A stretch of DNA of 64,000 bases from Deltaproteobacteria bacterium HGW-Deltaproteobacteria-15 (GTDB lineage Bacteria > Desulfobacterota > DSM-4660 > Desulfatiglandales > HGW-15). The translations under genes were made by a program, and so were the position numbers. The stretch lies in NCBI GenBank assembly GCA_002840535.1, contig PHBH01000026.1:11083-75082 (forward strand), given 5' to 3'. Each line of letters starts with the position of its first letter. The first letter of the stretch is position 1. Shown one piece after another: positions 11,921 to 51,765 of this stretch. A model generated the notes under the pieces. It was given only the letters and a program-made list of their open reading frames with translations. It was not told the DNA's origin and made no database searches.

Positions 11921-11928
11921 ACGGTTAT

Positions 11929-11952
11929 TGGCGGAAGTGCATGGGAATCGAA
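11929..11952. repeat. 24-bp exact copy of the tRNA-Sec 3-prime end (distal att repeat of island A)
   Basis: TGGCGGAAGTGCATGGGAATCGAA is identical to 51669-51692 and 22057-22080. Confidence 0.85.
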
Positions 11953-12107
11953 ATCTTACACTTCTTAGTAATATCCGCTAGTTAATACCCCATCTGGGGA
12001 ACATTCGGGGAACAATGGTTCCCCAAGCCTACCTTTTCAGCTTCTCTCAGATACCCCATTTATACGGTCAATCTTGCCATAAAAGGCACAAGGAAGAAGG
12101 TGAACGA

Positions 12108-12305
12108 ATGCTAGGAACAATGAAATTTTACAACGATTCGAAAGGCTATGGTTTTGCCATAGGTGAAAACGGGATTGACTTTTTTGTTCATATTACAAAC
12201 GTAGCAGATGAAGTTATTCTTCAAACGGGTGACAAGATTGAATTTACTACACAACCATCACAGAATGGTGGTAGGCCACTAGCAGTAAATGTTAGGAAAA
12301 TTTAA
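12108..12305 (+). CDS. cold-shock-domain (CspA-like) protein
   Basis: GTMKFYNDSKGYGFAI...DFFVH matches the CSD RNP motifs (KGYGFI, FVH). Start trimmed to the ATG after AAGGAAGAAGG. Confidence 0.75.
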   Translation: MLGTMKFYNDSKGYGFAIGENGIDFFVHITNVADEVILQTGDKIEFTTQPSQNGGRPLAVNVRKI

Positions 12306-12323
12306 AGGAGCGATACAACTACA

Positions 12324-13106
12324 ATGAATGAACAAATTGAAAATCTCCGGAAGGAGTATCAAGAACTAGGCGGAAGCTTAGAAGAAGTACAATCAATTGA
12401 TTCAGTCGAAGAAATGGCCTTTTTGGTCAATCTTCAGTCAAGCATAAAAGAGTTAGAAAGTGATTCTAGTAACAATGGTTCAGAATCACAAAGTGATTTA
12501 CAATTAATTGAATCCTTGAAACAAGAACTAGAATCACTTCCGTATAATAGTGAAGAATGGAGACAACGTCAGAATCAAATACTATTTTACGAGAATAAAA
12601 CTCGAAAGGAGTTAGGACTTCAGCCAAAACAATATGAGGTACTAGACAGTGACCTAGCCAAACTGCTTCAACTTGATGGTAATGAAATATCTTCAACATG
12701 TAGAGAGTATATCTCAAAGTTTGAAGATAATATACCACTACAAAAAAGCCTAGAATTTCGGCTTACCCAGATGAAAAATAGTTTTGATCTTATACAAAAA
12801 CAGGAATTGGAGAAAACACAATTTGATGTTTTTGTGTCTTCAGCTTGGGAATCAGTAAAGAATGTTCCTGTTCGATATACCGAAGATTCAAGGGGTAAAT
12901 TGATAAAAAACCCAGGGTTTACAAAATGGTATAATTCAGCAAAGACTCTACAAACAAAGCTGAATAGCAGGATTCACTATCTTCAAAAAATGGAGCAAGA
13001 AGGAGAAGAAAATGTTGACTTACGTGAACGGATTTTCAGAATTCACAAAGACCTTTCTGCCCTATTGGAACAGCAAGGAGTGAGTAACAATGTCAGAACT
13101 AGATAA
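12324..13106 (+). CDS. hypothetical coiled-coil protein
   Basis: 260-aa AT-rich ORF, Glu/Leu/Gln-rich. No recognised motif. Confidence 0.5.
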   Translation: MNEQIENLRKEYQELGGSLEEVQSIDSVEEMAFLVNLQSSIKELESDSSNNGSESQSDLQLIESLKQELESLPYNSEEWRQRQNQILFYENKTRKELGLQPKQYEVLDSDLAKLLQLDGNEISSTCREYISKFEDNIPLQKSLEFRLTQMKNSFDLIQKQELEKTQFDVFVSSAWESVKNVPVRYTEDSRGKLIKNPGFTKWYNSAKTLQTKLNSRIHYLQKMEQEGEENVDLRERIFRIHKDLSALLEQQGVSNNVRTR

Positions 13107-13773
13107 AAATGAGCTTTTAGCATTATTCAAAGCAACAGACTTTAACAATGAAAATTCCTACCGCTTATTCTGCGAACAGTTACTCGATATTTCTGGAGCA
13201 ACTTTTTGGCAGAATGAAAGCAAGAAACTGATAGGTGAAAGAGACTCCGCAAAAGGTCGTGTTCGTGAGTTGGCAAAACTGACAGAAAAGAAGTTGGAGC
13301 AGATAAAGAAGAACAAGAATAGATCTGCTACTGATTCAAAGTTACTTGAATATCAGATTGTCAGTGAAGCAAAGAAAAACAAAAGCTATAGCCCTACTCA
13401 GATATACAAGCTACTGCGTGAAGACTTCCAGCAAGCTGAAGATAATAGTTTTTATGTTCCGATATTGGATGAAAACAAAAATGAAATCTCAAGAAAGAGT
13501 GTTGGACAATATGTCAGTGAGTTTTTGAGTAATCCTGAAAATGATAACCTCGTTGAAGCAGATAATTCAAAAGGTGGAAGTGGGCATTTTACAACCTCGT
13601 ATCCCGGTAGTAAAAGACAAGGAAAAGATAGACGTGGTAAACCGAAGTCTAGAAGAAAATATCCTCCTGAAATCGTCAAAGCGGCAGATGAACGAGGTTT
13701 AAGCCCACAAGATTGGGCAGAAATCCTCGAACACAAAAAAGAAGTAACAGCAAAAAGGAAGGGTTCAAATTGA
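13090..13773 (+). CDS. hypothetical protein with basic C-terminus
   Basis: 227-aa ORF overlapping the upstream stop. Lys/Arg-rich tail. Confidence 0.5.
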   Translation: MSELDKNELLALFKATDFNNENSYRLFCEQLLDISGATFWQNESKKLIGERDSAKGRVRELAKLTEKKLEQIKKNKNRSATDSKLLEYQIVSEAKKNKSYSPTQIYKLLREDFQQAEDNSFYVPILDENKNEISRKSVGQYVSEFLSNPENDNLVEADNSKGGSGHFTTSYPGSKRQGKDRRGKPKSRRKYPPEIVKAADERGLSPQDWAEILEHKKEVTAKRKGSN

Positions 13774-13805
13774 AGTCAAGAAGGAGAAAAAGACGTATTT
13801 ATACT

Positions 13806-13949
13806 ATGTCGGAACAAGATCTTTTAAACCGCAGAATGTATGAGAAGTTTCATTCTGTTCATACTTCACAAGAATTAGACGGGTTATTACCAGACGATTT
13901 GACCATATATCGAGATAATTTAAAACCACTGAAAAGGAGAACTAAATGA
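13806..13949 (+). CDS. small hypothetical protein
   Basis: 47-aa product from an internal ATG of ORF 13713-13949. Weak support. Confidence 0.3.
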   Translation: MSEQDLLNRRMYEKFHSVHTSQELDGLLPDDLTIYRDNLKPLKRRTK

Positions 13950-14116
13950 AAGAAACAGTATTACCTCTGCGATTAGCAGAAGTTGAAGCATTATATCTGA
14001 GATTTGGACTTAACCAAAACCAGCTCGCTAGGATATTTAGGGTGAAACCAAAAAGTATTGAACGATATTTTTACAGAATCGCAGATCGAAAGGAGAATAT
14101 AAATAATGAGCGATAG
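13946..14116 (+). CDS. small HTH-like protein (below ORF-track cutoff)
   Basis: My own translation gives MKETVLPLRLAEVEALYLRFGLNQNQLARIFRVKPKSIERYF... GGAGA precedes the ATG. The start overlaps the upstream stop (ATGA). Confidence 0.4.
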   Translation: MKETVLPLRLAEVEALYLRFGLNQNQLARIFRVKPKSIERYFYRIADRKENINNER

Positions 14117-14291
14117 TAAATGCACACTAACCTTAAGGGAAATGGATGAAGACTTAGTAAAATCCTTGAAGAAAGAAAGTAAGGAACTGAGTATGTCCCC
14201 AACTAAGCTTGTATCCTGCTTGTTTGTTTTGTATGAATTGCAATGTCGTTACACCAGGGAACAGCTAAGACAGGCTGGCCTACATGTTTGA
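14106..14291 (+). CDS. small hypothetical protein
   Basis: 61-aa ORF overlapping the previous gene's end. Confidence 0.35.
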   Translation: MSDSKCTLTLREMDEDLVKSLKKESKELSMSPTKLVSCLFVLYELQCRYTREQLRQAGLHV

Positions 14292-14400
14292 TAGATAATA
14301 TCAATTCCTAAACTTGAATGATCGAATAATTGATATTGCGGTTGATAGAGCAGTAATAGAGTAGGCAGTAAAACGTCTTATCTGCTTGATACTACAGGAT

Positions 14401-14622
14401 TTATCCCTTTTGTGATATTGCAGATAAAATAAGGGAAGGATGATAAATCCCTGCCTTTCTGACTTCCTCTAATACATTAATATAATTGGCATCTTTTAAA
14501 ATCGCATTATATAGCAGTTCCTTTCCATAGCCGAAGGCACCTACCGGCGGGTGTTGCAGGGAATAGCAGAATTCTTGAAATTGGTCCTTCACCTCAGCCA
14601 ATAGATAGAATCGAGGTGACAT
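14401..14622 (-). CDS. small hypothetical protein
   Basis: 73-aa ORF. No motif recognised. Confidence 0.35.
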   Translation of the reverse strand: MSPRFYLLAEVKDQFQEFCYSLQHPPVGAFGYGKELLYNAILKDANYINVLEEVRKAGIYHPSLILSAISQKG

Positions 14623-14749
14623 CCTGCAACACCTATTTATACATTTATGAAGCTGAGAAAGTAAGAATTAGGCCGAAAAGTGGCAAAATGGGAAGTAAGA
14701 AGGTACTTTTGGAAGTTACAAAATGACCTTAATACAATCAATCCAACAA

Positions 14750-15229
14750 TCATTTCGTTGAAGTTTCGAATTCGTCCATCCATGGTTTCACCTTGTCGTA
14801 AGGTACCTTTGCGACCTTGCAAAGTGTCTCATCGTCGAGATTTAACTCATTCTGCCTTTTACGAATCTCGCTCAACCATTTGTGTAGAAGCCTAGCTTCA
14901 ACATCTTCAAGACCGGTCGAAATTGACCTTGATTTATGTACCCGGACAATAATATCTGCACTTATCCAAGCCCGAAAGTAAAGTCCAAGTAAAAAGGGCT
15001 CAGTATCCATACTCTTTTGTGCGTTTACATTTCGGATTTGGCTGACGCATTCTGCTACTCCAGAAACATTTCCGGCATTGCACGAAGTGGAAAAAGAGTC
15101 TGAGCCTCTTTCAATCTCAGATCTCACGGTCATCACCTTTTTTTCCACTGGAGCATCTAGGTCAGCAGTTGAACAGATTTGAGGAATGGACAAAACCAGC
15201 ACTACGATCGAGACAATTAGCTTTTTCAT
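14750..15229 (-). CDS. secreted hypothetical protein
   Basis: Start trimmed to the ATG after GGAGGAAGG. N-terminus MKKLIVSIVVLVLSIPQICSTA looks like a signal peptide. Confidence 0.5.
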   Translation of the reverse strand: MKKLIVSIVVLVLSIPQICSTADLDAPVEKKVMTVRSEIERGSDSFSTSCNAGNVSGVAECVSQIRNVNAQKSMDTEPFLLGLYFRAWISADIIVRVHKSRSISTGLEDVEARLLHKWLSEIRKRQNELNLDDETLCKVAKVPYDKVKPWMDEFETSTK

Positions 15230-15370
15230 TTCCCTTCCTCCTTTTGTGCATGTAGCCGCCGCAGGGACTAGATAGTTTTTGAAATTGGCTGTAGGAGATT
15301 CCACCGCCTTTGTGGTCACCGTGAATTCTCGTTGAATTCTTCTGAATCAACTTTCTTTACCATACTAGTC

Positions 15371-15727
15371 TCATTTCTTCTTTTGTATGCTGTCATCTTC
15401 AATGAGCCATATCTTATTTGAACCTTGGATCACTACATTTCCATATTTATCATGAAATCTCTGTTTCTCGAAAAGTTTAGCCTTCAGCTTGTCCTTTTTT
15501 ATAAAACGATAAATTGTGTGTGTGCTAATTCCCCACAATTGCGCCGCTTTCTGTACGGTTACGACTGGTTGTGTATACGTGAAGTATTCGCAATTCCAAC
15601 ACCCCTTGTACTCAAATGTTCTGACATCAACATCGCAGCCTTTGTAGTCAACATGTGTTGGATTGCTGCATTCTCCAATGATCTGTCCTTCTTCGAAGAT
15701 GGAAAAGGATTCTTCTTTTTCCTGCAT
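15371..15727 (-). CDS. HTH DNA-binding protein (excisionase/MerR-like HTH) with Cys-rich N-terminus
   Basis: VTVQKAAQLWGISTHTIYRFIKKDKL HTH segment. Lies immediately upstream of the small recombinase gene. Confidence 0.55.
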   Translation of the reverse strand: MQEKEESFSIFEEGQIIGECSNPTHVDYKGCDVDVRTFEYKGCWNCEYFTYTQPVVTVQKAAQLWGISTHTIYRFIKKDKLKAKLFEKQRFHDKYGNVVIQGSNKIWLIEDDSIQKKK

Positions 15728-15796
15728 CTTTCCTCCTTTCGTGTTCGGATAGGGTCTAGAATCCCTCAGAATCGACTTTTGAACCTGATCGAATAG

Positions 15797-16471
15797 CTAA
15801 CCCCATAAACCTTTAACCTGTTCCTGCAATTCCTCTTTGGTGACATCCGCATAGATCGTAGTCGATTGAATAGAGACATGCCGAAGTTGCTTTTGTACTG
15901 CCCGTAAATCTTTGTTTTGTTTGTATAAAGCTACAGCATAAGAATGCCTAAGAGAATGAGCAGACTTCCCTTTCTCGTATAATCCTAGTCTTTTCAGGCA
16001 CTTTTTTATAATCAACTGTAAGGCTTGACTTGTTACCTTTCCTCTCTGACCTTGGAACAATGGAGCATCAGAAGAAATATCTTCCCTATGCTGCTCCTTC
16101 CATAGCAAGAACGTCTTGAGATGACGCTTAAGCGAATCAGGAATGACAACCATACCGGAGACATTTCCTTTTCCATTTCGCACATGGATTTCTGCTTGTC
16201 CGTGTCCGATACGCAAATCTCCGCAACATAGGTTTGCTGCTTCACTGACTCGTAGGCCACTACTGGTAAGCAGATCGACAACCATCCAAGTCCTAATCCC
16301 TGTTACAGTCCCTCTTGAAGCTGATACCTCAGCCTGTTCTCTTGCCAGTCTCCGAAGTGCCTTGATTTCAGCTTCAGAGTAGTATCGAAGCTTGTCTAGG
16401 TTAACGTGTCTCCGCTCCTTCTTCTTCTCGTTAGCGGTACGGATAGGTAGCTGAATAAGGTTTGATACCAT
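15797..16471 (-). CDS. small tyrosine recombinase (XerC/D-like)
   Basis: Catalytic-domain motifs GLRVSEA, HSLRHSYA and LRHVSIQSTTIYADV (R...HxxR...Y). Confidence 0.85.
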   Translation of the reverse strand: MVSNLIQLPIRTANEKKKERRHVNLDKLRYYSEAEIKALRRLAREQAEVSASRGTVTGIRTWMVVDLLTSSGLRVSEAANLCCGDLRIGHGQAEIHVRNGKGNVSGMVVIPDSLKRHLKTFLLWKEQHREDISSDAPLFQGQRGKVTSQALQLIIKKCLKRLGLYEKGKSAHSLRHSYAVALYKQNKDLRAVQKQLRHVSIQSTTIYADVTKEELQEQVKGLWG

Positions 16472-17465
16472 ACATTCACCTCCATGAAAAGTTTTCTATA
16501 CAGTTTGGAAACCGTTTGAAGGGTGTAACTAGCTGATCGCTTGTTGTGCCAACACCCAAACTGAAAAGAAAATCTATAGACTGTTTTGAGTTTCTGTAGG
16601 GCAAAAAAGAAGGGCAGAGGAACAGCACTTGCTTGTGTGTGTCCCTCTGCCCTATGTCCTTCACCATACCGTTATAGCTGGTACTGGATCTTAACGAGCT
16701 ACTGCATAGCGCTATGCAGCTAAAGTACAACCGGGAGTCTCACGTCAATCTCGGTGTGACAGTTGCCCTTCAAACCGGCTTCCTTGATCCTGCTCAGATG
16801 CCTATCTCAAAGAGCGATTCGGCTGAAGTGTTCCTCATGCACTATCAGGTTAAACATGTTATAGGTTGATACAAACAATGCTCATACTTCCATCACATTG
16901 TAAAGTTTGGCAGGATTCACAGTGCTGGTAAGCTCTTGGAAGTGTTAATTAAAATGGCTGTATCAATACAAATTGATAATGCTTTTCCCTAACTTCCTGG
17001 TTGACTTAAAGTGATCTCAATTCAAGGACATGGACTGACTGTAGTAATTATAAGAAGTCAAGAAATATGTGCTTTTTCTGTATCATCTGTGATACGCCAA
17101 TCTATTGGCCTTGTGTCATAATTCTAACACATAGTGCTGCTATATTGACTGGCATGTGTCGAGTATTTGTTTACCGCTAGGTCAACTTATGTATGCGGAT
17201 AGGTTAACAAGCGAACACATAATGGCTTTAGATAACTTCGATGTTGCATCGGAAGGTATGCCACCCTATTCACCATATCGCATGAAAAAGTCGAAAATGT
17301 TGGAACATGTCCGGTATTACAGATGAATGCCTCTTCAGGTTTAAGCCTTCAGAACAGTTGAATATTAGCTATTAACATTTGAGCTTGCGAAAAACACAGC
17401 AATATACGAAGATAACGACCCACAACCATACAATTCCATCGACTCAGCAAACAAAGGGGGGGGGT

Positions 17466-18155
17466 ATGAGAGGATTATTGATGAGCATCTGCCTATCAGC
17501 GACCATTTGCACGTTTTCTTCATGTACCTTTCAATTAACTCATCATTTTATAGACAAACTAAAGCCAGAGGAACTATACCTAGAATATAATACTATTCCC
17601 AAGGATCTTAAAGCCATATCGAACTGTGAACAAACCCCCTCCATAAACATAATAAGTTCCGAGACTAGAGACAGTTACAATATTCCTTGGGGACCGTACA
17701 CATATCATGTGATACCAAGCCAACTTATGGAAAAGGTCGCTGATTACATGAGAACGGGGTTCGCGAAAACAGGTGTGAGGCCTGATAGCAGTTGCCCTAA
17801 AACTATTCGTATTTTCTTCGAAGAAATCAAGTTCTTGAAAGGCTTCTGGGTAATCGGTGGTTTTTTTCGCATGAAGGTAGCAGTCCCTGAAATTGGATAC
17901 ACGCAATACTATGAAGCTGAGGAGTGGTCAGGAAGTGGTGCCCTATACCAAACACTTAATTCCATACACATCTCTACGCAAAAAGTCATTGATGACCCTG
18001 TTATTCAGGGGTATATACTCTGCCGAGATGAAAACATCCGGAAGAAGCAGTCATTAGCTGATAGGCTACAAGAACTGAGGGAAGCTTTGGACAGAAAGCT
18101 AATTTCGTCAGACGAATACGAGTCTGCTCGGCAAAGGCTAATTGAATCTTATTGA
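17466..18155 (+). CDS. lipoprotein with C-terminal SHOCT-like motif
   Basis: MRGLLMSICLSATICTFSSC lipobox-like leader. C-terminal LISSDEYESARQRLI resembles the SHOCT domain. The ATG is preceded by a G9 run. Confidence 0.6.
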   Translation: MRGLLMSICLSATICTFSSCTFQLTHHFIDKLKPEELYLEYNTIPKDLKAISNCEQTPSINIISSETRDSYNIPWGPYTYHVIPSQLMEKVADYMRTGFAKTGVRPDSSCPKTIRIFFEEIKFLKGFWVIGGFFRMKVAVPEIGYTQYYEAEEWSGSGALYQTLNSIHISTQKVIDDPVIQGYILCRDENIRKKQSLADRLQELREALDRKLISSDEYESARQRLIESY

Positions 18156-18623
18156 CTGTACGAATGATGTCATTCCATGCTGATGACACATAAGGCACTG
18201 AAAACACTAGCGTCAGTTTTTTGTTGACAATCAGAAGTCATCATTATACAAAGCGACTTCCGGTGAGGCATCCCCAATCATGGGAGTCTCCAGCAGCGAC
18301 TAAAGCACCACACATTATCAACCTTCCAAAACACCCTGCCCCTTTTTTTCTGGAACACTCCAGAAATTTCTCCGGTTTTATAATTTGTCAACTTTTTTTG
18401 AATTAATATTTTTTTGCGACTACGTCCTTTTTCCACTATCCAAATCACGTTATTAGAAGCACACTTTTTTAGAGGCAGACGCGGTCTGAATCATATATCA
18501 AAATCGTCTGAAGTGAACCGTCATTAGTGTCTTAGCTGGACATGACCGAAAGTTCTCTCTACTAACTCTCTTGCTTTCTACGGTTTACTTCAGACTCCAT
18601 TTCTAGAGAGGAAGTGTTTAAAA

Positions 18624-20051
18624 TTGTTAGAGTATATACATTTAGATGATTCGATTTTATTCGATACCTATTGTGTATCTGAAATCAATGGGTTTATTGA
18701 TCTTACAGAATATATCCTAGATGAAATTGGACTGAGAAACGATAAAAGCAGAGATTATTACAAAAAAAGGGACTTTCTAAGAAACATGTTAGCGAATCTT
18801 TATATTTCTGAAAGGATAAATAGACCTGTTGCCATATCAAAGGATAGGAATAGCTGGAAATGTGTGGAGAGGTATCACAAACTTTTCATGACATACAGAA
18901 CCATGAAATTCGTCTTTGACAGGATGACTTCGGCAAAACTGATAGTTTCATATAAAGGTTTCAATATTCCTAAAACCTCTTTCAGTTATAACACTCGTTT
19001 TCATGCTACCAGTAAGCTGGAGAATTTAATTAATCGTTTTGTTCCAACTTTAGAGTTTATTCCGGCTGAACTTGATCAGGATTACATTTTACTAAAAGAT
19101 CAGAAGAAATTCCTATCCGGATATGAAGATGATGAAAATACTGTAGAAATGCGAAGGCAACTTACTGATTACAACGAATTCATGTCAGATCAGGAGATTT
19201 CAATCAGCCTAGATCATATATTAGAGCCTCTTAGCAAAACAATCAGGGAATACCAGCTAAAAGGATTTCTTACAATCCCTAATTCCAACTATAACACTAA
19301 TTCTCCTACTCCTTCCAATCTAACACCTTACCCCTTACACACCATTACTCAGAACGTTCATTACAATGAACAGGAAGCATGGTTATTGGGATTAAAGCAG
19401 GTTAGATCTTCTAGAATCTTTAACACAGATTTCAGCCATGGCGGTAGGTTCTACCACAGTATTCATCTGGTTTTCGGTAAAGAACAGAGGAAGGAAATAC
19501 GGATAAATGGGGAAAGAACATGCGAGTTAGATTATTCAAGTCTACATCCTCGGATGCTCTACAACATGTCAGGGATTGCCTTTGAAGGAGATTGCTATAG
19601 CGATATTTCTGACTCTCAGGAGGAAAGAGAGTTAGTCAAGGAAGTCATGCTAACAATGATCAACATTTCTAAAGAAAAAAAAGATAAGTTACCTGCTTCG
19701 GTGAACAAGGAGATTAAAAAACATAATTCCCGTCAAAAATTCCTACCGGTAGGACAGAGGATTTATAAAAAGGGGATTCCGTATAAGAAAGTATGGGAGT
19801 ATGCGGATAGAATTGAGAAATATCACTCCCCTATTGCTGAATATTTTAATAGCGGCATCGGTTTACGGTTACAGAATTTAGATAGCCACATAATGAGCAA
19901 TGTTTTGAACGATTGCTATAGGGAAAAAGTAGCTTCCTTACCTGTTCATGACAGTTGTATTGTTAAAGAACGGGATAAGGATTTTTTGTATTCATCAATG
20001 GTTAGAAATTACCAGAAAGTTATGAACGGATACACTCCGGTAATAAAATAA
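18624..20051 (+). CDS. hypothetical protein with polymerase-palm-like motifs (possible element replication protein)
   Basis: TTG start after GAGGAAG. GGRFY, ELDYSSLHPRMLY and LPVHDSCIV segments resemble motifs A and C of family-A/T7-like single-subunit polymerases. Confidence 0.5.
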   Translation: MLEYIHLDDSILFDTYCVSEINGFIDLTEYILDEIGLRNDKSRDYYKKRDFLRNMLANLYISERINRPVAISKDRNSWKCVERYHKLFMTYRTMKFVFDRMTSAKLIVSYKGFNIPKTSFSYNTRFHATSKLENLINRFVPTLEFIPAELDQDYILLKDQKKFLSGYEDDENTVEMRRQLTDYNEFMSDQEISISLDHILEPLSKTIREYQLKGFLTIPNSNYNTNSPTPSNLTPYPLHTITQNVHYNEQEAWLLGLKQVRSSRIFNTDFSHGGRFYHSIHLVFGKEQRKEIRINGERTCELDYSSLHPRMLYNMSGIAFEGDCYSDISDSQEERELVKEVMLTMINISKEKKDKLPASVNKEIKKHNSRQKFLPVGQRIYKKGIPYKKVWEYADRIEKYHSPIAEYFNSGIGLRLQNLDSHIMSNVLNDCYREKVASLPVHDSCIVKERDKDFLYSSMVRNYQKVMNGYTPVIK

Positions 20052-20119
20052 GGGTTGTACAGGACCATTCAATCTGTACGTAGCTTCAACAAATTAGAAC
20101 CTTTTTTATAGGAGAAATT

Positions 20120-20320
20120 ATGAGTAGAAAAGTAATGAAGCTGGTAAATCCTTATACCGGGGAAATGGTTTGCAAAGTATGTGGTTCACAACATTTTGCA
20201 AGTATTAAACCGAGCTGTAATGGACATTACTACCGGGGTTCATGGCAGTGTATTAACCATTGTAAACTGGAGGATTTACAAGAGCCTGAACAATCTGAGG
20301 AACAAGGGGAAAAAAGTTAG
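20120..20320 (+). CDS. small zinc-ribbon-like protein
   Basis: AGGAGA before the ATG. CKVCGS...C..H and CINHC pairs. Confidence 0.45.
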   Translation: MSRKVMKLVNPYTGEMVCKVCGSQHFASIKPSCNGHYYRGSWQCINHCKLEDLQEPEQSEEQGEKS

Positions 20321-20582
20321 TTAACCAGAATCCTGCCCTTTCCCTCAGAAGGGCAGGAAATACCCAAAATCAAGAGCTACAGGGACTTTCTACAGGAAAC
20401 AGGTATAGGGTGTTAGGGCATTTGGAACTTAATTCAAAACTATAAGAAAGGCAGCGATATGATTATTGATTTTCGACAAAGGACGCGTTGGAATGAAAAC
20501 CTCAAAACGAAACTCATTGACTTCAGGAAAAAAGTATGCTTCGGATTCTCTCAAATCCAGCAAGGATTCGGAGGGATTCTGC

Positions 20583-21710
20583 ATGAAAGGTTCAATCCAG
20601 TTCAGGAAAGATCGGGGATTGTACTATGTTAGCTGGTACGATCAGGCAAGCAAAAGACGATATAAGGTCTACAAATACAAAGGCGAGTTCCTCTATTCGG
20701 AAAAGGTTGCACAAAAGTTGCTTGCCTGTATGCAGAATGATTTCGAAAGAAAGATATTCAGGATTGAAAATTACCTAGATGATAGTGTCTCAGATGTATG
20801 TAAATATCTCGATGAATGGTTGACTACAATAAAGAGTTTTTTGAAACCCGGTACAAGTAAAGACTACGAGAATTCTGTTAGAAATTATCTAAAACCTTTC
20901 TTTGAACAAAAGAAGATAGGTTTAGCAGAAATACAATACGATACTTTGCTTGAACTAATGAATTTCATTGATAGGTCTGGTAAAGGTAGATTGAACGTTA
21001 TGTATTGTTTGCATTCCTGCTTAGACCACGCATGGAGAAGCAGAAGAATACCTAACATACCTCCATTTCCAAGAAAGAAGCAGTACAAAATCGAGAAAAA
21101 GCCGATTGTCTGGTTGCCGGAGGAAAGACAGATTGCTGTTATTAAATCCATTCCTGAAATTCATCAGCCTATTTTTTGGTGGTTGAAGTTTCATTTCAGA
21201 AGGGAAGGGGAAGCCTGTGCTCTCCGAAACGAAGATTTTGACGGAAAGATTTTCTATATTCACAGAACGGAATCAGCTAGGGTTTTCACCGATACCACCA
21301 AAACGGGAGAAATCCACAACATCGCTATGGTAGATTCTTTTAAACCTTTTCTAGAAATGGAAAAGGAGAAACAGAAGAAAATGAGCATAATTTCAAGGTA
21401 TTTTTTTGTAAATCCAGTGGGCAAGGAAGAAGGGAAACCATACCACGTTAAGACCCTAGGAGATATTTGGAACAAAGCATGTTCGGAACTAGGAGAACAT
21501 ATCAGATGCTATGCAGGGACAAAGCACTCTTCTTGCTCTCAGTTTATAAACGAAAAAGGCGGTACAGAATCAGAATTGCAGATGATAACAGATCATGCTC
21601 GATTAGAGTCTGTAAGAAACTATGCCCGAACTGAGGTAGCCAGAAGGAAAGAGCTAATGGAAAGGAAAGTTGTTTCTCTTCAACCTAAGACCATTGGAGG
21701 TAAGGCATGA
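20583..21710 (+). CDS. tyrosine integrase of island A
   Basis: Phage-integrase-type architecture. The N-terminal MKGSIQFRKDRGLYYVSWYD arm-binding-like start was chosen over the upstream TTG at 20466. C-terminal ...GTKHSSCSQF...HARLESVRNYAR. Adjacent to the 67-bp selC repeat. Confidence 0.8.
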   Translation: MKGSIQFRKDRGLYYVSWYDQASKRRYKVYKYKGEFLYSEKVAQKLLACMQNDFERKIFRIENYLDDSVSDVCKYLDEWLTTIKSFLKPGTSKDYENSVRNYLKPFFEQKKIGLAEIQYDTLLELMNFIDRSGKGRLNVMYCLHSCLDHAWRSRRIPNIPPFPRKKQYKIEKKPIVWLPEERQIAVIKSIPEIHQPIFWWLKFHFRREGEACALRNEDFDGKIFYIHRTESARVFTDTTKTGEIHNIAMVDSFKPFLEMEKEKQKKMSIISRYFFVNPVGKEEGKPYHVKTLGDIWNKACSELGEHIRCYAGTKHSSCSQFINEKGGTESELQMITDHARLESVRNYARTEVARRKELMERKVVSLQPKTIGGKA

Positions 21711-21985
21711 GTTTAATTGTTCAGGATTTAAAGGAAGGTTTCGCAGGATGTTTGGACATTCTCCAAACAATCGAGTCTCTTGATGTAATGTACGAGAGAA
21801 GAGGAGACCCTAAAATTGCTGGATTAGTGGATCTTTTGATTAGGACCTTAGCTCAGGATATTACCTCTCTTAGTCGTATCATTTCCAACAAGAGCAAAGG
21901 TGAAAAAGAAGAACCTGTATTTCCCTATTTACATGAAAAAAAGGTTCAAGCTGGTGACGCCTATCCAGACGTAAAATTTAGGTGA
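21707..21985 (+). CDS. hypothetical protein
   Basis: 92-aa ORF overlapping the integrase stop (ATGA). Confidence 0.4.
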   Translation: MSLIVQDLKEGFAGCLDILQTIESLDVMYERRGDPKIAGLVDLLIRTLAQDITSLSRIISNKSKGEKEEPVFPYLHEKKVQAGDAYPDVKFR

Positions 21986-22056
21986 AAATGAATCGGATTC
22001 GGGGAACAATCGGGGAACAAATCAGAAGTAAAAAGGTTAATGATGTTAATAGGATA

Positions 22057-22123
22057 TGGCGGAAGTGCATGGGAATCGAACCCACCTGCCAGGTTTTAGC
22101 CCGGCACACCGGATTTGAAGTCC
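22057..22123. repeat. 67-bp exact copy of the 3-prime two-thirds of tRNA-Sec (distal att repeat of island B; former selC end next to island A)
   Basis: Identical base for base to 51669-51735 (hand alignment). Includes the UCA anticodon loop region. Confidence 0.9.
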
Positions 22124-23208: not shown

Positions 23209-24924
23209 ATGCACAAGGTCATAGCATCGTACCTTGAAACGTTTTCAGTTCATCATGGCATTGAATCATTGGTCGAATCCGAACGCTTCGAACGCTTCGT
23301 CAACTTCGCTGTCGTCTCCTCTTTCTTTCCAGACCAGTTCGATATCGACGACATCACTACCGGGACCGGGGATGATTCGATAGACGGTGTCGCCGTCATT
23401 ATTGGCGACGAACTTGTCGTTTCGGCGGACGACGCTAGCAGCGTCTTCGCTCGCCTTCGTCCACGGCAGCAGGTCCCAGCCCGCTACATCTTTGTCCAAG
23501 CTAAGCGTTCGGAATCCTTTGATGCGGGTGAAATGCTGAAACTCGGGTCCGGCGTCCAACGTATTTTGACAGACGCGGATGGAGGCCCAAGCGATGATGT
23601 GCTTAAAGACTTTTTGAAAATACACGAAGTCGTAGTCGCGAATCTCGCCAAAGTTGAGAATGGACGATCAGACGCTCTGCTATTTTATGTGACGACCGGA
23701 ACCTGGCATGAGGACAACGGCCTCCGGCCGCAACTCAGATATGTCGAAACTCAGCTAAAATCAACTGGACTACTTCATTCAATCACCTACGAACCGGTGG
23801 ATCGAGAGAAACTCATCCGCTTCTGGCTCATGTCTCAGGCTCCAGTCGAAGCGACATTTCCCGCCAAGAATTACATAGCCTTCCCTGCGATTGAAGGTGT
23901 AACTGAAGCCTATTTAGCCATAGTCCCAGCGCTCGAGTTTGTAAATAGAGTACTAGCAGACGACGAAGGTCGAATCAGAGCCTCAGTCTTTGATCAGAAT
24001 GTACGAGCGTATCTTGGCGATGACAATCGGGTCAACGTGAAGATTCGAGCGTCTCTTCAAGATAAAAGCGCTCACGACAGGTTCGCAGTCCTGAATAATG
24101 GAGTAACCGTAGTCTCTCCCGACGTCAGAGTCCAGTCCGATAGAATCTCTGTAAAAGACTATCAGATAGTCAACGGATGCCAGACCAGTCACGTCCTCTT
24201 TCGCAATCGAGAAGCACTTACCGATAAGGTGTTCGTGCCAGTTCGAGTAGTTGAAGCAGCCGACCCGGGCCTCATCGCCCGTATGGTCGAGGCTACCAAT
24301 AGCCAGAGCAACGTTGAGGAATCTCAGTTCCTGTCAACTCGTCCTTTTGTGCGCCAAGTAGAAGCTTATTTTGATGCTTTCGATAACGAGGAAGACCGCG
24401 ATCGACGATTGTACTTTGAGCGCCGTACTCGCCAGTTCTCAGGGCACAACATCGCCCGTGCAAGACTATTCGATATTCAGCGCCTCGCCAGGTGTTTCGC
24501 TTCGATGTTCTTGGAGGTGCCGCACCTCGCCGCCCGCTATCCAACCCAGACATTCCAAGAAAGAGCGGACCAACTCTTCCAGTCAGACCATCGAGAAGTC
24601 TCGTACTACGCGGCGGCACTCGCTCTCTACCGTCTGGAGTTGTCCCTTGGAAACCAGTATGTTCCGCGAAAATATCAGATATTCAAATGGCATCTCCTTC
24701 TTATCGTTCGGTATCAGTTAGCTGGGCGTGAGCTTCCGGGGCTCAATTCCGGCCGGCTTGAGAAGTACTGTGCCCGTATCATTGATGCCTTTTCGCCAGG
24801 AGGGAAGACCTCAGCCACTCCGTTCCTGGAAGCCACCAAAGTCATAGATGCACTCGGCAATGCAAATCGTGACCGTCTGCGTCAACAAAAGTACACAGAG
24901 GAAGTGAAGAAGGCACTCGCCTAG
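23209..24924 (+). CDS. AIPR-family (abortive-infection phage-resistance) protein
   Basis: N-terminal ERFERFVNF...GDDSIDGV block and central LNNGVTVV...YQIVNGCQTSHVLF motif characteristic of AIPR proteins. Confidence 0.8.
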   Translation: MHKVIASYLETFSVHHGIESLVESERFERFVNFAVVSSFFPDQFDIDDITTGTGDDSIDGVAVIIGDELVVSADDASSVFARLRPRQQVPARYIFVQAKRSESFDAGEMLKLGSGVQRILTDADGGPSDDVLKDFLKIHEVVVANLAKVENGRSDALLFYVTTGTWHEDNGLRPQLRYVETQLKSTGLLHSITYEPVDREKLIRFWLMSQAPVEATFPAKNYIAFPAIEGVTEAYLAIVPALEFVNRVLADDEGRIRASVFDQNVRAYLGDDNRVNVKIRASLQDKSAHDRFAVLNNGVTVVSPDVRVQSDRISVKDYQIVNGCQTSHVLFRNREALTDKVFVPVRVVEAADPGLIARMVEATNSQSNVEESQFLSTRPFVRQVEAYFDAFDNEEDRDRRLYFERRTRQFSGHNIARARLFDIQRLARCFASMFLEVPHLAARYPTQTFQERADQLFQSDHREVSYYAAALALYRLELSLGNQYVPRKYQIFKWHLLLIVRYQLAGRELPGLNSGRLEKYCARIIDAFSPGGKTSATPFLEATKVIDALGNANRDRLRQQKYTEEVKKALA

Positions 24925-25075
24925 ATGCGGCCCACCGGAAGGGCTTCGCTGGTGATGCCGAACAGTCCTGAGAACCGTTACGTAGGCCGGCGGTTTCGCG
25001 AACGCCATGGGCTAGCGCTGGTTAGACACGGAAACGTTGGATTGGACAACCCCTTTGACGGATGTCGATTGACAG

Positions 25076-25828
25076 GTGATGGCAGTGCATCATAAGAAAG
25101 ATGGGTCGTTCGATAAGCTTAGTGGTTTTCTGAGCAGTGTTCGTAAGGCATGCATTAAGAAATCATCCCTTTTGGCTTTTAACGATAAGGATTTCGCCAA
25201 TGGTTACACGATCTGTCTTTACTCAATTGTCATTGAACTGGCGGGCGACTGCTGTCATGCGGTTAAGGCCAGGAAAGAACGTGCATCATACGTACTGACA
25301 AGAGCCTTACTTGAGGCCGTCGTCGATCTATTCAACGTCATCAAGAACCCCAAATATGTTCATACCCGGTTTCAAAGGGCGCTGGTTGAAAGAAAGAAGA
25401 AGCTCACCTACCTCCAAGAAAAGGAACCAGGACTTATCTCGAGAGGCGGACGGGACGTCAACTATGTAGATGCCGCAATCCGTAAAATCGACAATCTTAG
25501 AGATACTCACATCGAGCAGCCAAATATCAGGAACCGGTTTCGTGATGCGGATATGGAAGGCTACTATGATACTGCATATTCTCTATTGTGTGATTTCTGC
25601 CACCTTGATGCCAGCACCTTATTGAGCAGGCCAGTCGGGCTAAAGGTTAGTCCACTTGATGACATAAGCCTCCTAATGTTAAGTGATCTTATTGCTGAAC
25701 TGCTGCTGGATTCAACAATTGCCATTCATGAGATGCTTGGCTCTAAGAAATCGAAAGAGATTGAAGAACTGAAGTCCAGATGGAAAGCTGTGTACAGCCA
25801 ACAAGCGGCTACGATAGGACCTCGCTAA
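25076..25828 (+). CDS. helical hypothetical protein downstream of AIPR
   Basis: 250-aa ORF (GTG, or ATG 3 nt later). Predicted helical. No confident family. Confidence 0.5.
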   Translation: MMAVHHKKDGSFDKLSGFLSSVRKACIKKSSLLAFNDKDFANGYTICLYSIVIELAGDCCHAVKARKERASYVLTRALLEAVVDLFNVIKNPKYVHTRFQRALVERKKKLTYLQEKEPGLISRGGRDVNYVDAAIRKIDNLRDTHIEQPNIRNRFRDADMEGYYDTAYSLLCDFCHLDASTLLSRPVGLKVSPLDDISLLMLSDLIAELLLDSTIAIHEMLGSKKSKEIEELKSRWKAVYSQQAATIGPR

Positions 25829-51668: not shown

Positions 51669-51765
51669 TGGCGGAAGTGCATGGGAATCGAACCCACCTG
51701 CCAGGTTTTAGCCCGGCACACCGGATTTGAAGTCCGGGAGCCCCACCAGTGAGCTTTCCACTTCC
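51669..51765 (-). tRNA. selC: tRNA-Sec (anticodon UCA)
   Basis: 97 nt: GGAAGTGG...GGACTTCAAATCC...GGTTCGATTCC...CACTTCCGCCA. Anticodon loop CU-UCA-AA, 7-bp variable arm, encoded CCA. Close resemblance to E. coli selC. ORF 51332-51721 merely translates it. Confidence 0.9.

Follow-up and report, generated by a model that had tools for sequence, protein, structure and literature searches.

A minimal family-A-like polymerase of the TV-Pol type in a tRNA-Sec integrative island

Transposon-Virus polymerases (TV-Pols) are a family predicted computationally by Iyer, Abhiman and Aravind (2008, Biol Direct 3:39; PMC2579912), whose core combines a bi-helical thumb, an arginine in a β-hairpin, two aspartates in the palm and fingers bearing an RxxxK motif and a further Asp, with no nuclease domains. 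Here we describe a new member of the kind predicted in 2008, a 475-residue protein encoded at positions 18624-20051 (plus strand) of a 64,000-nucleotide (nt) stretch of contig PHBH01000026.1 from Deltaproteobacteria bacterium HGW-Deltaproteobacteria-15. This whole stretch is called the window, and nucleotide positions refer to it unless stated otherwise. The gene lies in island A, a 10.1-kb AT-rich element at the end of a tRNA-Sec gene.

In the 2008 study, TV-Pols were predicted to be the primase-polymerases of replicative mobile elements, and a further proposal made them a primase class other than DnaG and AEP, as well as a minimal, possibly ancestral form of the lineage behind DNA Pol I and the T7 and mitochondrial RNA polymerases (PMC2579912). 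One subset, TV-PolN, carries an uncharacterised N-terminal domain, and its genes lie beside those of lambda-type integrases, gamma-delta resolvases and transposases, in neighbourhoods rich in mobile elements and restriction-modification (R-M) operons, the co-occurrence with R-M being attributed to shared integration hot spots (PMC2579912). CCPol from SCCmec, which is atypical, is the only relative that has been assayed. Together with its partner MP it acts as a DNA polymerase and primase, performing both primer extension and de novo DNA priming, and no other TV-Pol was characterised according to the same work (Bebel et al. 2020, PMC7581432). CCPol adjoins genuine PolAs (CHEAP subfamily) in the analysis of Czernecki et al. 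2023, which does not cover the family of the island A protein (PMC10201439).

We file the island A polymerase under the N-domain subset of the TV-Pols on their defining features rather than on a direct sequence link to a named member, noting that TV-Pol is a loose, PSI-BLAST-level grouping. The structural and contextual features of the group are all found, namely the thumb, the hairpin Arg, the palm Asp pair, the fingers, the lack of a nuclease, and an N-terminal domain together with recombinase linkage. We think it fairly probable that the protein is an active minimal polymerase serving island A, which probably initiates DNA synthesis on the excised circle and uses its winged helix for DNA targeting.

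Sequence family and predicted fold

The open reading frame (ORF) begins with TTG, about 10 nt downstream of an AG-rich, Shine-Dalgarno-like stretch, and an identical 475-residue record exists in the protein collection. The guanine plus cytosine content of the gene stretch is 36-44%, with a value of 37% for the region, against 52-60% in the flanks. The initial annotation, made from the DNA alone, had described an otherwise unassignable AT-rich ORF. The AT-richness is evident, and the sequence is indeed without match in Pfam, NCBIfam and PADLOC, as it is among PDB sequences whether searched singly or as a family profile; PHROGs, however, places it in phrog_4756 (E 2.7e-55), a family of unknown function. 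The profile PF00476 (DNA_pol_A) gives no match to the protein at E ≤ 1 or to 65 of its homologues at E ≤ 0.01, and PF00940 (T7-like RNA polymerase) matches neither the protein nor the same 65 homologues. Judged by its sequence, the protein would not be counted as a member of Pfam DNA_pol_A or RNA_pol. We annotate the gene as a TV-Pol-type minimal family-A-like polymerase on the basis of the ORF, phrog_4756, the homologous clusters, the predicted structure and its fold matches.

The family is very large. While a word-indexed search yielded 27 homologues, HMMER, run exhaustively against 1.84 billion cluster representatives (clusters at 50% identity), yielded 5,724 clusters at E ≤ 1e-3, including 3,110 with E ≤ 1e-10. 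No Pfam or NCBIfam model exists for these clusters, and phrog_4756 of PHROGs is their sole cover.

The AlphaFold2 model of the polymerase, built from a 65-sequence alignment, has a mean predicted local distance difference test score (pLDDT) of 89.8 and a predicted template modelling score of 0.88, with low scores only at residues 1-4 and 230-246. It is composed of a winged helix, thumb, palm and fingers only, with no exonuclease domain. The thumb (19071-19298, plus strand) consists of two antiparallel helices (residues 171-188 and 201-212 by DSSP on the model), and the alignments to PolA and to single-subunit RNA polymerases (ssRNAPs) begin near residue 150. The thumb is followed by a low-confidence, variable linker at residues ~226-250, where the large insertions of homologues fall. 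The fingers, which are inserted in the palm and include helices within residues 332-433, carry the RxxxK motif and a conserved Asp.

A Foldseek search against the PDB gives 23 matches at E ≤ 1e-3, and all 50 matches listed have a probability of 0.99-1.00. Those listed are PolA enzymes (apicoplast Pol, Klenow, Taq, Bst, M. smegmatis Pol1) or yeast mitochondrial RNA polymerase (mtRNAP), and no others. A second structure search that is independent of Foldseek (VIA, 48,161 chains) also returns the Pol I/ssRNAP superfamily for all of its top 20 matches, aligned over residues ~150-475. The best is apPOL (Z 13.7 over 249 residues, 4.0 Å), and the further scores are 13.6 for Aquifex Pol I, 13.0 for yeast mtRNAP over 356 residues, 12.5 for Pol nu, 11.9 for Klenow, 11.2 for T7 DNA polymerase, 11.1 for Pol theta, 11.0 for T7 RNA polymerase (T7 RNAP), 8.0 for N4 mini-vRNAP and 7.5 for N4 RNAPII. 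A comparison with predicted viral structures ranks family members of Aeromonas and Rheinheimera phages first, including one annotated as 'DNA polymerase'; Pol I and T7-like RNA polymerases come next. The palm that the initial annotation had surmised from short motifs is therefore present in the model, together with fingers and thumb, and the top PDB matches are all PolA or T7-like RNA polymerase.

The presence of ssRNAPs among the best structural matches, yeast mtRNAP giving the longest alignment, bears on an alternative in which the protein would be a promoter-specific ssRNAP, a tiny analogue of T7 RNAP or N4 RNAPII that transcribes genes of the element or phage, with the winged helix recognising the promoter. 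A cluster of look-alikes in the Atlas is likewise auto-named 'DNA-directed RNA polymerase family protein'. Against this, the structural Z-scores fail to separate DNA from RNA polymerases, PF00940 gives no match, and no specificity loop or T7-type N-terminal domain is recognised. Small integrative islands are, moreover, normally served by the host RNA polymerase. We also observe that the whole model aligns to mtRNAP from residue 15, an overlap which may reflect helices only. Taken with the active-site residues discussed below, these points make a dedicated RNA polymerase an unlikely reading.

The N-terminal domain (residues ~19-145; 18678-19058, plus strand) is putatively a DNA-binding or targeting module, as seen both in the full model and in a separate model of the domain, which reaches a pLDDT of 87.6 when folded alone. 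Nearly all of the top 50 VIA matches to this domain are winged-helix proteins (S19e, MarR, PadR, ArsR, TubR, STIV F93) with Z-scores of 5.2-7.0, and Foldseek returns weak matches (E 0.05-0.4) of the same class. With moderate confidence, we describe the domain as winged-helix-like. The possibility that it is instead the promoter-binding domain of an ssRNAP was considered and rejected, since the domain folded alone matches only winged-helix proteins, with modest scores.

Active-site residues and possible substrates

The three segments that had drawn attention to this ORF, GGRFY (residues 273-277), ELDYSSLHPRMLY (in the segment ERTCELDYSSLHPRMLY, residues 297-313) and LPVHDSCIV (residues 439-447), are all present in its translation. 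Their conservation was counted in 174 diverse representatives, one per 50%-identity cluster, aligned to the family hidden Markov model (HMM). R275, R289, D303 and K339 are each found in 174/174 homologues, and D443 in all 172 of the homologues that cover the position. Nearly as constant are N347 (173/174), D420 (170/174), H308 (169/174) and R335 (166/174), followed by Q417 (159/174) and L343 (144/174), while H442 and S444 are found in 166 and 169 of the aligned homologues, respectively. Because R275, R289, D303, K339 and D443 are invariant, the resemblance to polymerase motifs goes far beyond chance.

In order to place these residues in known polymerases, the family profile was aligned with hhalign to the single sequences of Klenow and T7 RNAP, which gave short motif-level alignments only (E 0.04-0.08), used here for register and not as evidence of homology. 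In the Klenow register, which is unambiguous although the alignment as a whole is weak, GGR275 corresponds to TGR668 (T666-G667-R668), D303 to D705, Y304 to Y706, S305 to S707, H308 to the steric gate E710 and R310 to R712. For T7 RNAP, motif C alone is aligned (E 0.043), with H442-D443-S444 equivalent to H811-D812-S813.

The first motif, GGRFY (19440-19454, plus strand), is the equivalent of the T/DxxGR motif, its invariant R275 aligned to Klenow R668 and lying in a β-hairpin of modelled strands 263-267 and 274-277. Motif A, ELDYSSLHPRMLY (19524-19562, plus strand), includes the predicted catalytic D303 in β-strand 297-304, and H308 at the position of Klenow E710. The likeness of this segment to the DYSQIELR type, proposed from the letters alone, fits the alignment of the invariant D303 to Klenow D705. 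Motif B (19626-19664, plus strand) is an O-helix-like RxxxKxxxLxxxN on helix 332-347, conserved at all four positions, in which R335-x3-K339-x3-L343-x3-N347 has, by inspection, the period of Klenow R754/K758/F762/Y766, and we infer that the two helices correspond. Next comes the LQNLDS helix (19869-19886, plus strand; helix 413-433) with conserved Q417 and D420, the latter being the conserved fingers Asp of TV-Pols. Motif C, LPVHDS (19938-19955, plus strand), lies in β-hairpin 439-448 and contains the predicted catalytic D443; its HDS is that of T7-like RNA polymerases and not the HDE of Pol I. The alignment of D443 to T7 RNAP D812 and its conservation agree with the earlier identification of LPVHDSCIV as motif C. 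Variation of either Asp among homologues would have spoken against a polymerase; both are invariant.

This pattern also bears on the idea that the fold is catalytically dead and re-used as a DNA-binding regulator or partition protein. The winged-helix domain would suit such a role, but the 174 homologues show little or no variation at the metal-binding Asp pair, at Lys and Arg of the O-helix or at the Arg of the hairpin, which is unexpected for a dead enzyme and leaves this explanation highly improbable.

The residues that were kept and those that were changed fall into two sets. The catalytic residues and those contacting DNA or the nucleoside triphosphate are retained, and in place of the three residues with which Pol I enforces its choice of dNTPs (deoxyribonucleoside triphosphates) and stacks bases, the family has a conserved His, Leu and Asn. 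Given these substitutions and the RNA-polymerase-type HDS of motif C, the substrate may be either a dNTP or an rNTP (ribonucleoside triphosphate). The same residues enter the RNA polymerase alternative on both sides: HDS and GRxY occur as in T7 RNAP, where Pol I has HDE and GRLS, and the equivalents of the Pol I Glu steric gate and of Phe762 and Tyr766 are missing; the equivalent of T7 RNAP Tyr639, however, is Asn.

We also put forward, as a tentative and less than probable extension, that the family constitutes a primase or mini-RNA polymerase that is complete in one chain and targeted by sequence, in which the winged helix would replace both the SSB (a protein that binds single-stranded DNA) and helicase partners that CCPol has and T7 RNAP's promoter domain, and in which the altered sugar-selection residues (His, Asn and HDS) would allow de novo starts with rNTPs. 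If this were true, the protein would be the smallest T7-RNAP-like RNA-synthesising enzyme known, and the family, found widely among integrative elements and large marine phages, would count as a third lineage of primases.

Island A and the mobile setting of the family

A perfect 24-nt direct repeat occurs at 11929-11952, 22057-22080 and 51669-51692, with zero copies expected by chance in the window. The first copy is the left attachment site (att) of island A and copies the 3' end of tRNA-Sec. The second forms the last 24 nt of the right att (22057-22122, minus strand), a tRNA-Sec 3' fragment of ~65 nt that extends from the anticodon arm to CCA, as seen from its alignment to the intact gene. 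The third belongs to that intact tRNA-Sec gene, the integration target, which ARAGORN places at 51669-51765 (minus strand). Because the repeat occurs three times and a tRNA-Sec fragment lies at 22057, we recognise two islands arranged in tandem off the tRNA-Sec 3' end and separated by this fragment, island B at 22081-51668 and island A at 11953-22056.

The polymerase gene is the penultimate gene of island A, in an integrase module at the att end, where the order is polymerase, a 66-residue ORF without family match at 20120-20320, and a tyrosine integrase (20466-21710, plus strand; phrog_1 integrase, E 5.4e-31, and weak matches to PF00589 and Phage_int_SAM_3) at the tRNA-proximal end. We hypothesize that the integrase excises the element, that the N-terminal domain would bring the polymerase to a site on the circular form, and that the polymerase core, using two-metal chemistry through D303 and D443, would start a chain de novo and extend it over a short distance. 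The resulting primer would then be handed to the host replisome, so that the element might be copied before its loss or re-integration. The initial annotation had suggested a minimal single-subunit polymerase, or a primase-polymerase used to replicate or mobilise the island. The minimal polymerase is upheld by the fold and active site; the role in replication or mobilisation amounts to the published TV-Pol prediction (PMC2579912), fits the context and may hold here.

The relatives in bacterial genomes are consistent with such a setting. A pattern scan based on a 12-sequence alignment, covering one genome per prokaryotic species, found 80 polymerase loci in Desulfobacterota, Ignavibacteria, Bacteroidota, Lentisphaerota, Planctomycetota, Verrucomicrobiota and Alpha-, Beta- and Gammaproteobacteria, including Loktanella, Rhodobacteraceae and Nitrosomonas. 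Nearly all of the relatives are stand-alone proteins of 400-590 residues. Neighbours were counted by unsupervised clustering followed by HMM searches. A tyrosine integrase lies within 3 kb at 25/80 loci and within 8 kb at 44/80, a serine recombinase within 3 kb at 8/80, and either recombinase within 3 kb at 30/80 loci, or at 21 of the 53 loci whose flanks are complete; recombinase and polymerase mostly lie on the same strand. The neighbourhood survey that had been suggested alongside the initial motifs thus finds recombinases recurring beside the polymerase genes. At the second-, third- and sixteenth-ranked loci the order is polymerase, integrase and an opposite-strand target tRNA (tRNA-Asp, tRNA-Leu and tRNA-Asp, respectively), as in island A.

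Besides the island A gene, the host genome, a 7-Mb assembly of 106 contigs, contains two divergent copies (31-39% identical) that share a different contig. They encode paralogues of 582 and 559 residues and flank, at positions 128301-135842 of that contig, a tRNA-Leu, a 592-residue DUF6538-integrase and a resolvase. The three copies in this genome are three independent acquisitions. A copy is found in only 2 of 60 related genomes, a sporadic distribution which is typical of mobile DNA.

Relatives also occur in 248 phage records, often at two or three places per genome, and the carriers are mostly phages of Rheinheimera, Vibrio, Aeromonas and Pseudoalteromonas with genomes of 110-140 kb. The large Vibrio phage records KT932418.1 and MG592537.1 contain one or two genes of the family each, and in Vibrio phage qdvp001 one copy lies just 5' of the gene for a UvrD-type helicase. 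Both qdvp001 and phage 1.170.O encode, in addition, their own PolA of ~785 residues and a Toprim primase-helicase of ~670 residues, so that the family protein is not the sole or main primase or polymerase there. The phage copies fit an accessory role in initiation, or else the phages may carry them as selfish TV-Pol elements, an idea that Iyer et al. put forward for Ma-LMM01. Their coexistence with a full phage replisome also counts in favour of the RNA polymerase alternative.

In another alternative, the gene is a selfish, self-propagating one or encodes a repair or bypass polymerase, acting in gap filling at recombination joints or spreading among phages in a homing-like manner, with no dedicated role in replicating the island. 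Phage genomes with as many as three divergent copies, and the three copies in the host bacterial genome, would suit this explanation, as would the ~60% of loci that have no recombinase within 3 kb. Nevertheless, tyrosine recombination does not need DNA synthesis, no nuclease domain that could drive homing is found in the protein, and in thousands of clusters all polymerase residues are under strong purifying selection, as suits an enzyme with a dedicated role. No nuclease is recognised among the island A ORFs either, in scans with Pfam and PHROGs. We regard this explanation as very unlikely.

The initial annotation had also offered a defence-type nucleotide polymerase. Abi and DRT reverse transcriptases are precedents for polymerase-like defence enzymes, and the protein could in principle be cargo of defence islands, acting in defence or counter-defence by synthesising a nucleic acid that serves as signal or decoy, or by aborting infection. 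Type I R-M genes are often present near related loci, and the neighbouring island B carries AbiU. However, PADLOC-DB defence models give no match at E ≤ 0.01, the conserved neighbours are recombinases and not a fixed effector partner, and the gene's place is with the integrase module, at the att end, rather than with the cargo. The R-M genes would moreover reflect the shared integration hot spots described by Iyer et al. (PMC2579912). With neither a PADLOC match nor linkage to a recognised defence system, a defence function is quite unlikely.

Other features of the islands can be described more briefly. A 16-nt inverted repeat (94% complementary, 58-nt spacer) lies just 5' of the polymerase start, at 18506-18595, and is a candidate operator, terminator or origin. 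Island A contains a second recombination module (15371-16471, minus strand), comprising a 224-residue Xer-like tyrosine recombinase at 15797-16471 (PF00589, E 1.3e-24; XerA/C/D-like NCBIfam matches below cut-off) and an HTH_17, excisionase-like protein at 15371-15727 with a weak match to the excisionase family phrog_2655; the pair could be a resolution or inversion module, or the remnant of a nested element. The first gene inside the left att, at 12015-12305, encodes a cold-shock-domain protein (PF00313, E 9e-12), and several other island A ORFs belong to no family. At its start (23209-25828), island B encodes an abortive-infection protein of the AbiU/AIPR type (PADLOC AbiU, E 3e-104) and then a DUF5677 protein, and it looks like a defence island.

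The sequence of island A is present in four groundwater-metagenome DNA runs, which probably represent the samples of origin, and none of the runs listed as carrying it is an RNA run. A contig joint that skips 11953-22056 was considered as evidence of excision and rejected, since it has 25 nt on its short side and coincides with the 24-nt repeat, where contigs break. Separately, a 17.9-kb metagenome contig, about 8-fold deeper than the host, has the same tRNA-Sec-end sequence at both ends, touching the window at 11926-11957 and 22056-22085, and 17.8 kb of unrelated sequence between them; it is possibly another element with the same att site, from a more abundant organism.

Several observations weigh against a role of the polymerase in initiating replication of island A. 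The coexistence with PolA and Toprim proteins in Vibrio phages weakens a universal reading of the family as replicative primases. An iteron-like origin was searched for near the polymerase gene and not found, the inverted repeat mentioned above being accompanied by short repeats at chance level only. Island A has no recognisable helicase or SSB in Pfam, PHROGs and PADLOC scans of its ORFs, unlike the CCPol-MP-Cch2 system. The family profile finds nothing in the TV-Pol phage Ma-LMM01, even with the HMMER filters off, and a motif scan of this phage is also blank. No biochemistry has been published for any TV-Pol with an N-terminal domain (PMC7581432, PMC10061031), and CCPol is a weak functional proxy, because it is a true PolA with the E710 and F762 equivalents where the island A family has His and Leu.

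Having weighed these points, we retain as the more probable reading an active polymerase that initiates DNA synthesis for its element. Island A provides a clean test case: the gene is short, the tRNA-Sec island precisely delimited and the model confident, and there are clear targets for mutation, with catalysis addressed through D303 and D443, sugar choice through H308 and N347, and targeting through the winged helix. If de novo synthesis were true, the family could supply biotechnology with a very compact polymerase or primase, and a 17-year-old prediction would be answered.

Comparison with known polymerases

The closest described group, the TV-Pols, shares with the island A polymerase a length of 400-600 residues, a stand-alone architecture, a two-helix thumb, a hairpin Arg, an RRM-like palm with two Asp residues and fingers with RxxxK and Asp. 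The lack of a nuclease domain, the extra N-terminal domain and the linkage to integrases or resolvases in R-M-bearing regions are also common to both, and so is an overlapping, scattered range of taxa (Rhodobacterales including Loktanella, Desulfobacterota, Bacteroidota, Planctomycetota, Verrucomicrobiota and phages). Relatives of the island A protein are present in Loktanella, Paracoccus and Rhodobacteraceae, all of which the 2008 study names. One difference concerns the N-terminal domain of TV-PolN, which was predicted to be all-helical in 2008, whereas it is modelled here as an α/β winged helix.

Compared with CCPol, the island A polymerase has a similar exonuclease-less family-A core, encoded in a recombinase-proximal module of a recombinase-mobilised genomic island (PMC7581432, PMC10061031). 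CCPol, however, is recognisably a PolA (CDD PolA), keeps the E710 and F762 equivalents, has no N-terminal domain and needs the OB-fold partner MP, with the D5-type helicase Cch2 following. The island A protein lacks a PF00476 match, has His, Leu and Asn at the selection and stacking positions and carries its own winged-helix domain. Directly 3' of its gene no OB-fold partner or D5-type helicase is recognised; the 66-residue ORF, which has no family match and was not folded, comes first and then the integrase.

T7-like ssRNAPs resemble the island A polymerase in their thumb, palm and fingers fold (the Z-scores for T7 RNAP, yeast mtRNAP and N4 RNAPII are given above), in the GRxY hairpin of the T/DxxGR type, in the HDS of motif C, in having no Glu steric gate and in an extra N-terminal module, putatively nucleic-acid-binding in the island A protein. 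These enzymes start chains de novo. The motif A Asp and RxxxK are present in the island A protein, but it is about half their size or less and is not matched by PF00940, and Tyr639 is replaced by the nearly invariant Asn347. It has no recognisable specificity loop or intercalating hairpin, and its N-terminal domain resembles a winged helix rather than a T7 promoter-binding domain.

Pol I enzymes (Klenow and KlenTaq) give the best overall structural matches, with Z-scores of 11.9-13.7 over ~245 residues. Their motif A, DYSxhxxR, has nearly the same pattern, and the catalytic Asp pair and the O-helix Arg and Lys are present in both. The island A polymerase differs in having no 3'-5' or 5'-3' exonuclease domain, no PF00476 match and much shorter fingers, and in the replacement across its family of E710 by His, F762 by Leu, Y766 by Asn and HDE by HDS.

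Finally, pipolins, the integrative elements that encode piPolB (PMC11551731), offer a parallel by analogy only. They too are often found at tRNA genes and carry their own primer-independent polymerase beside recombinases, whereas that polymerase belongs to family B and is unrelated to the island A protein at the level of sequence families (PMC11551731).

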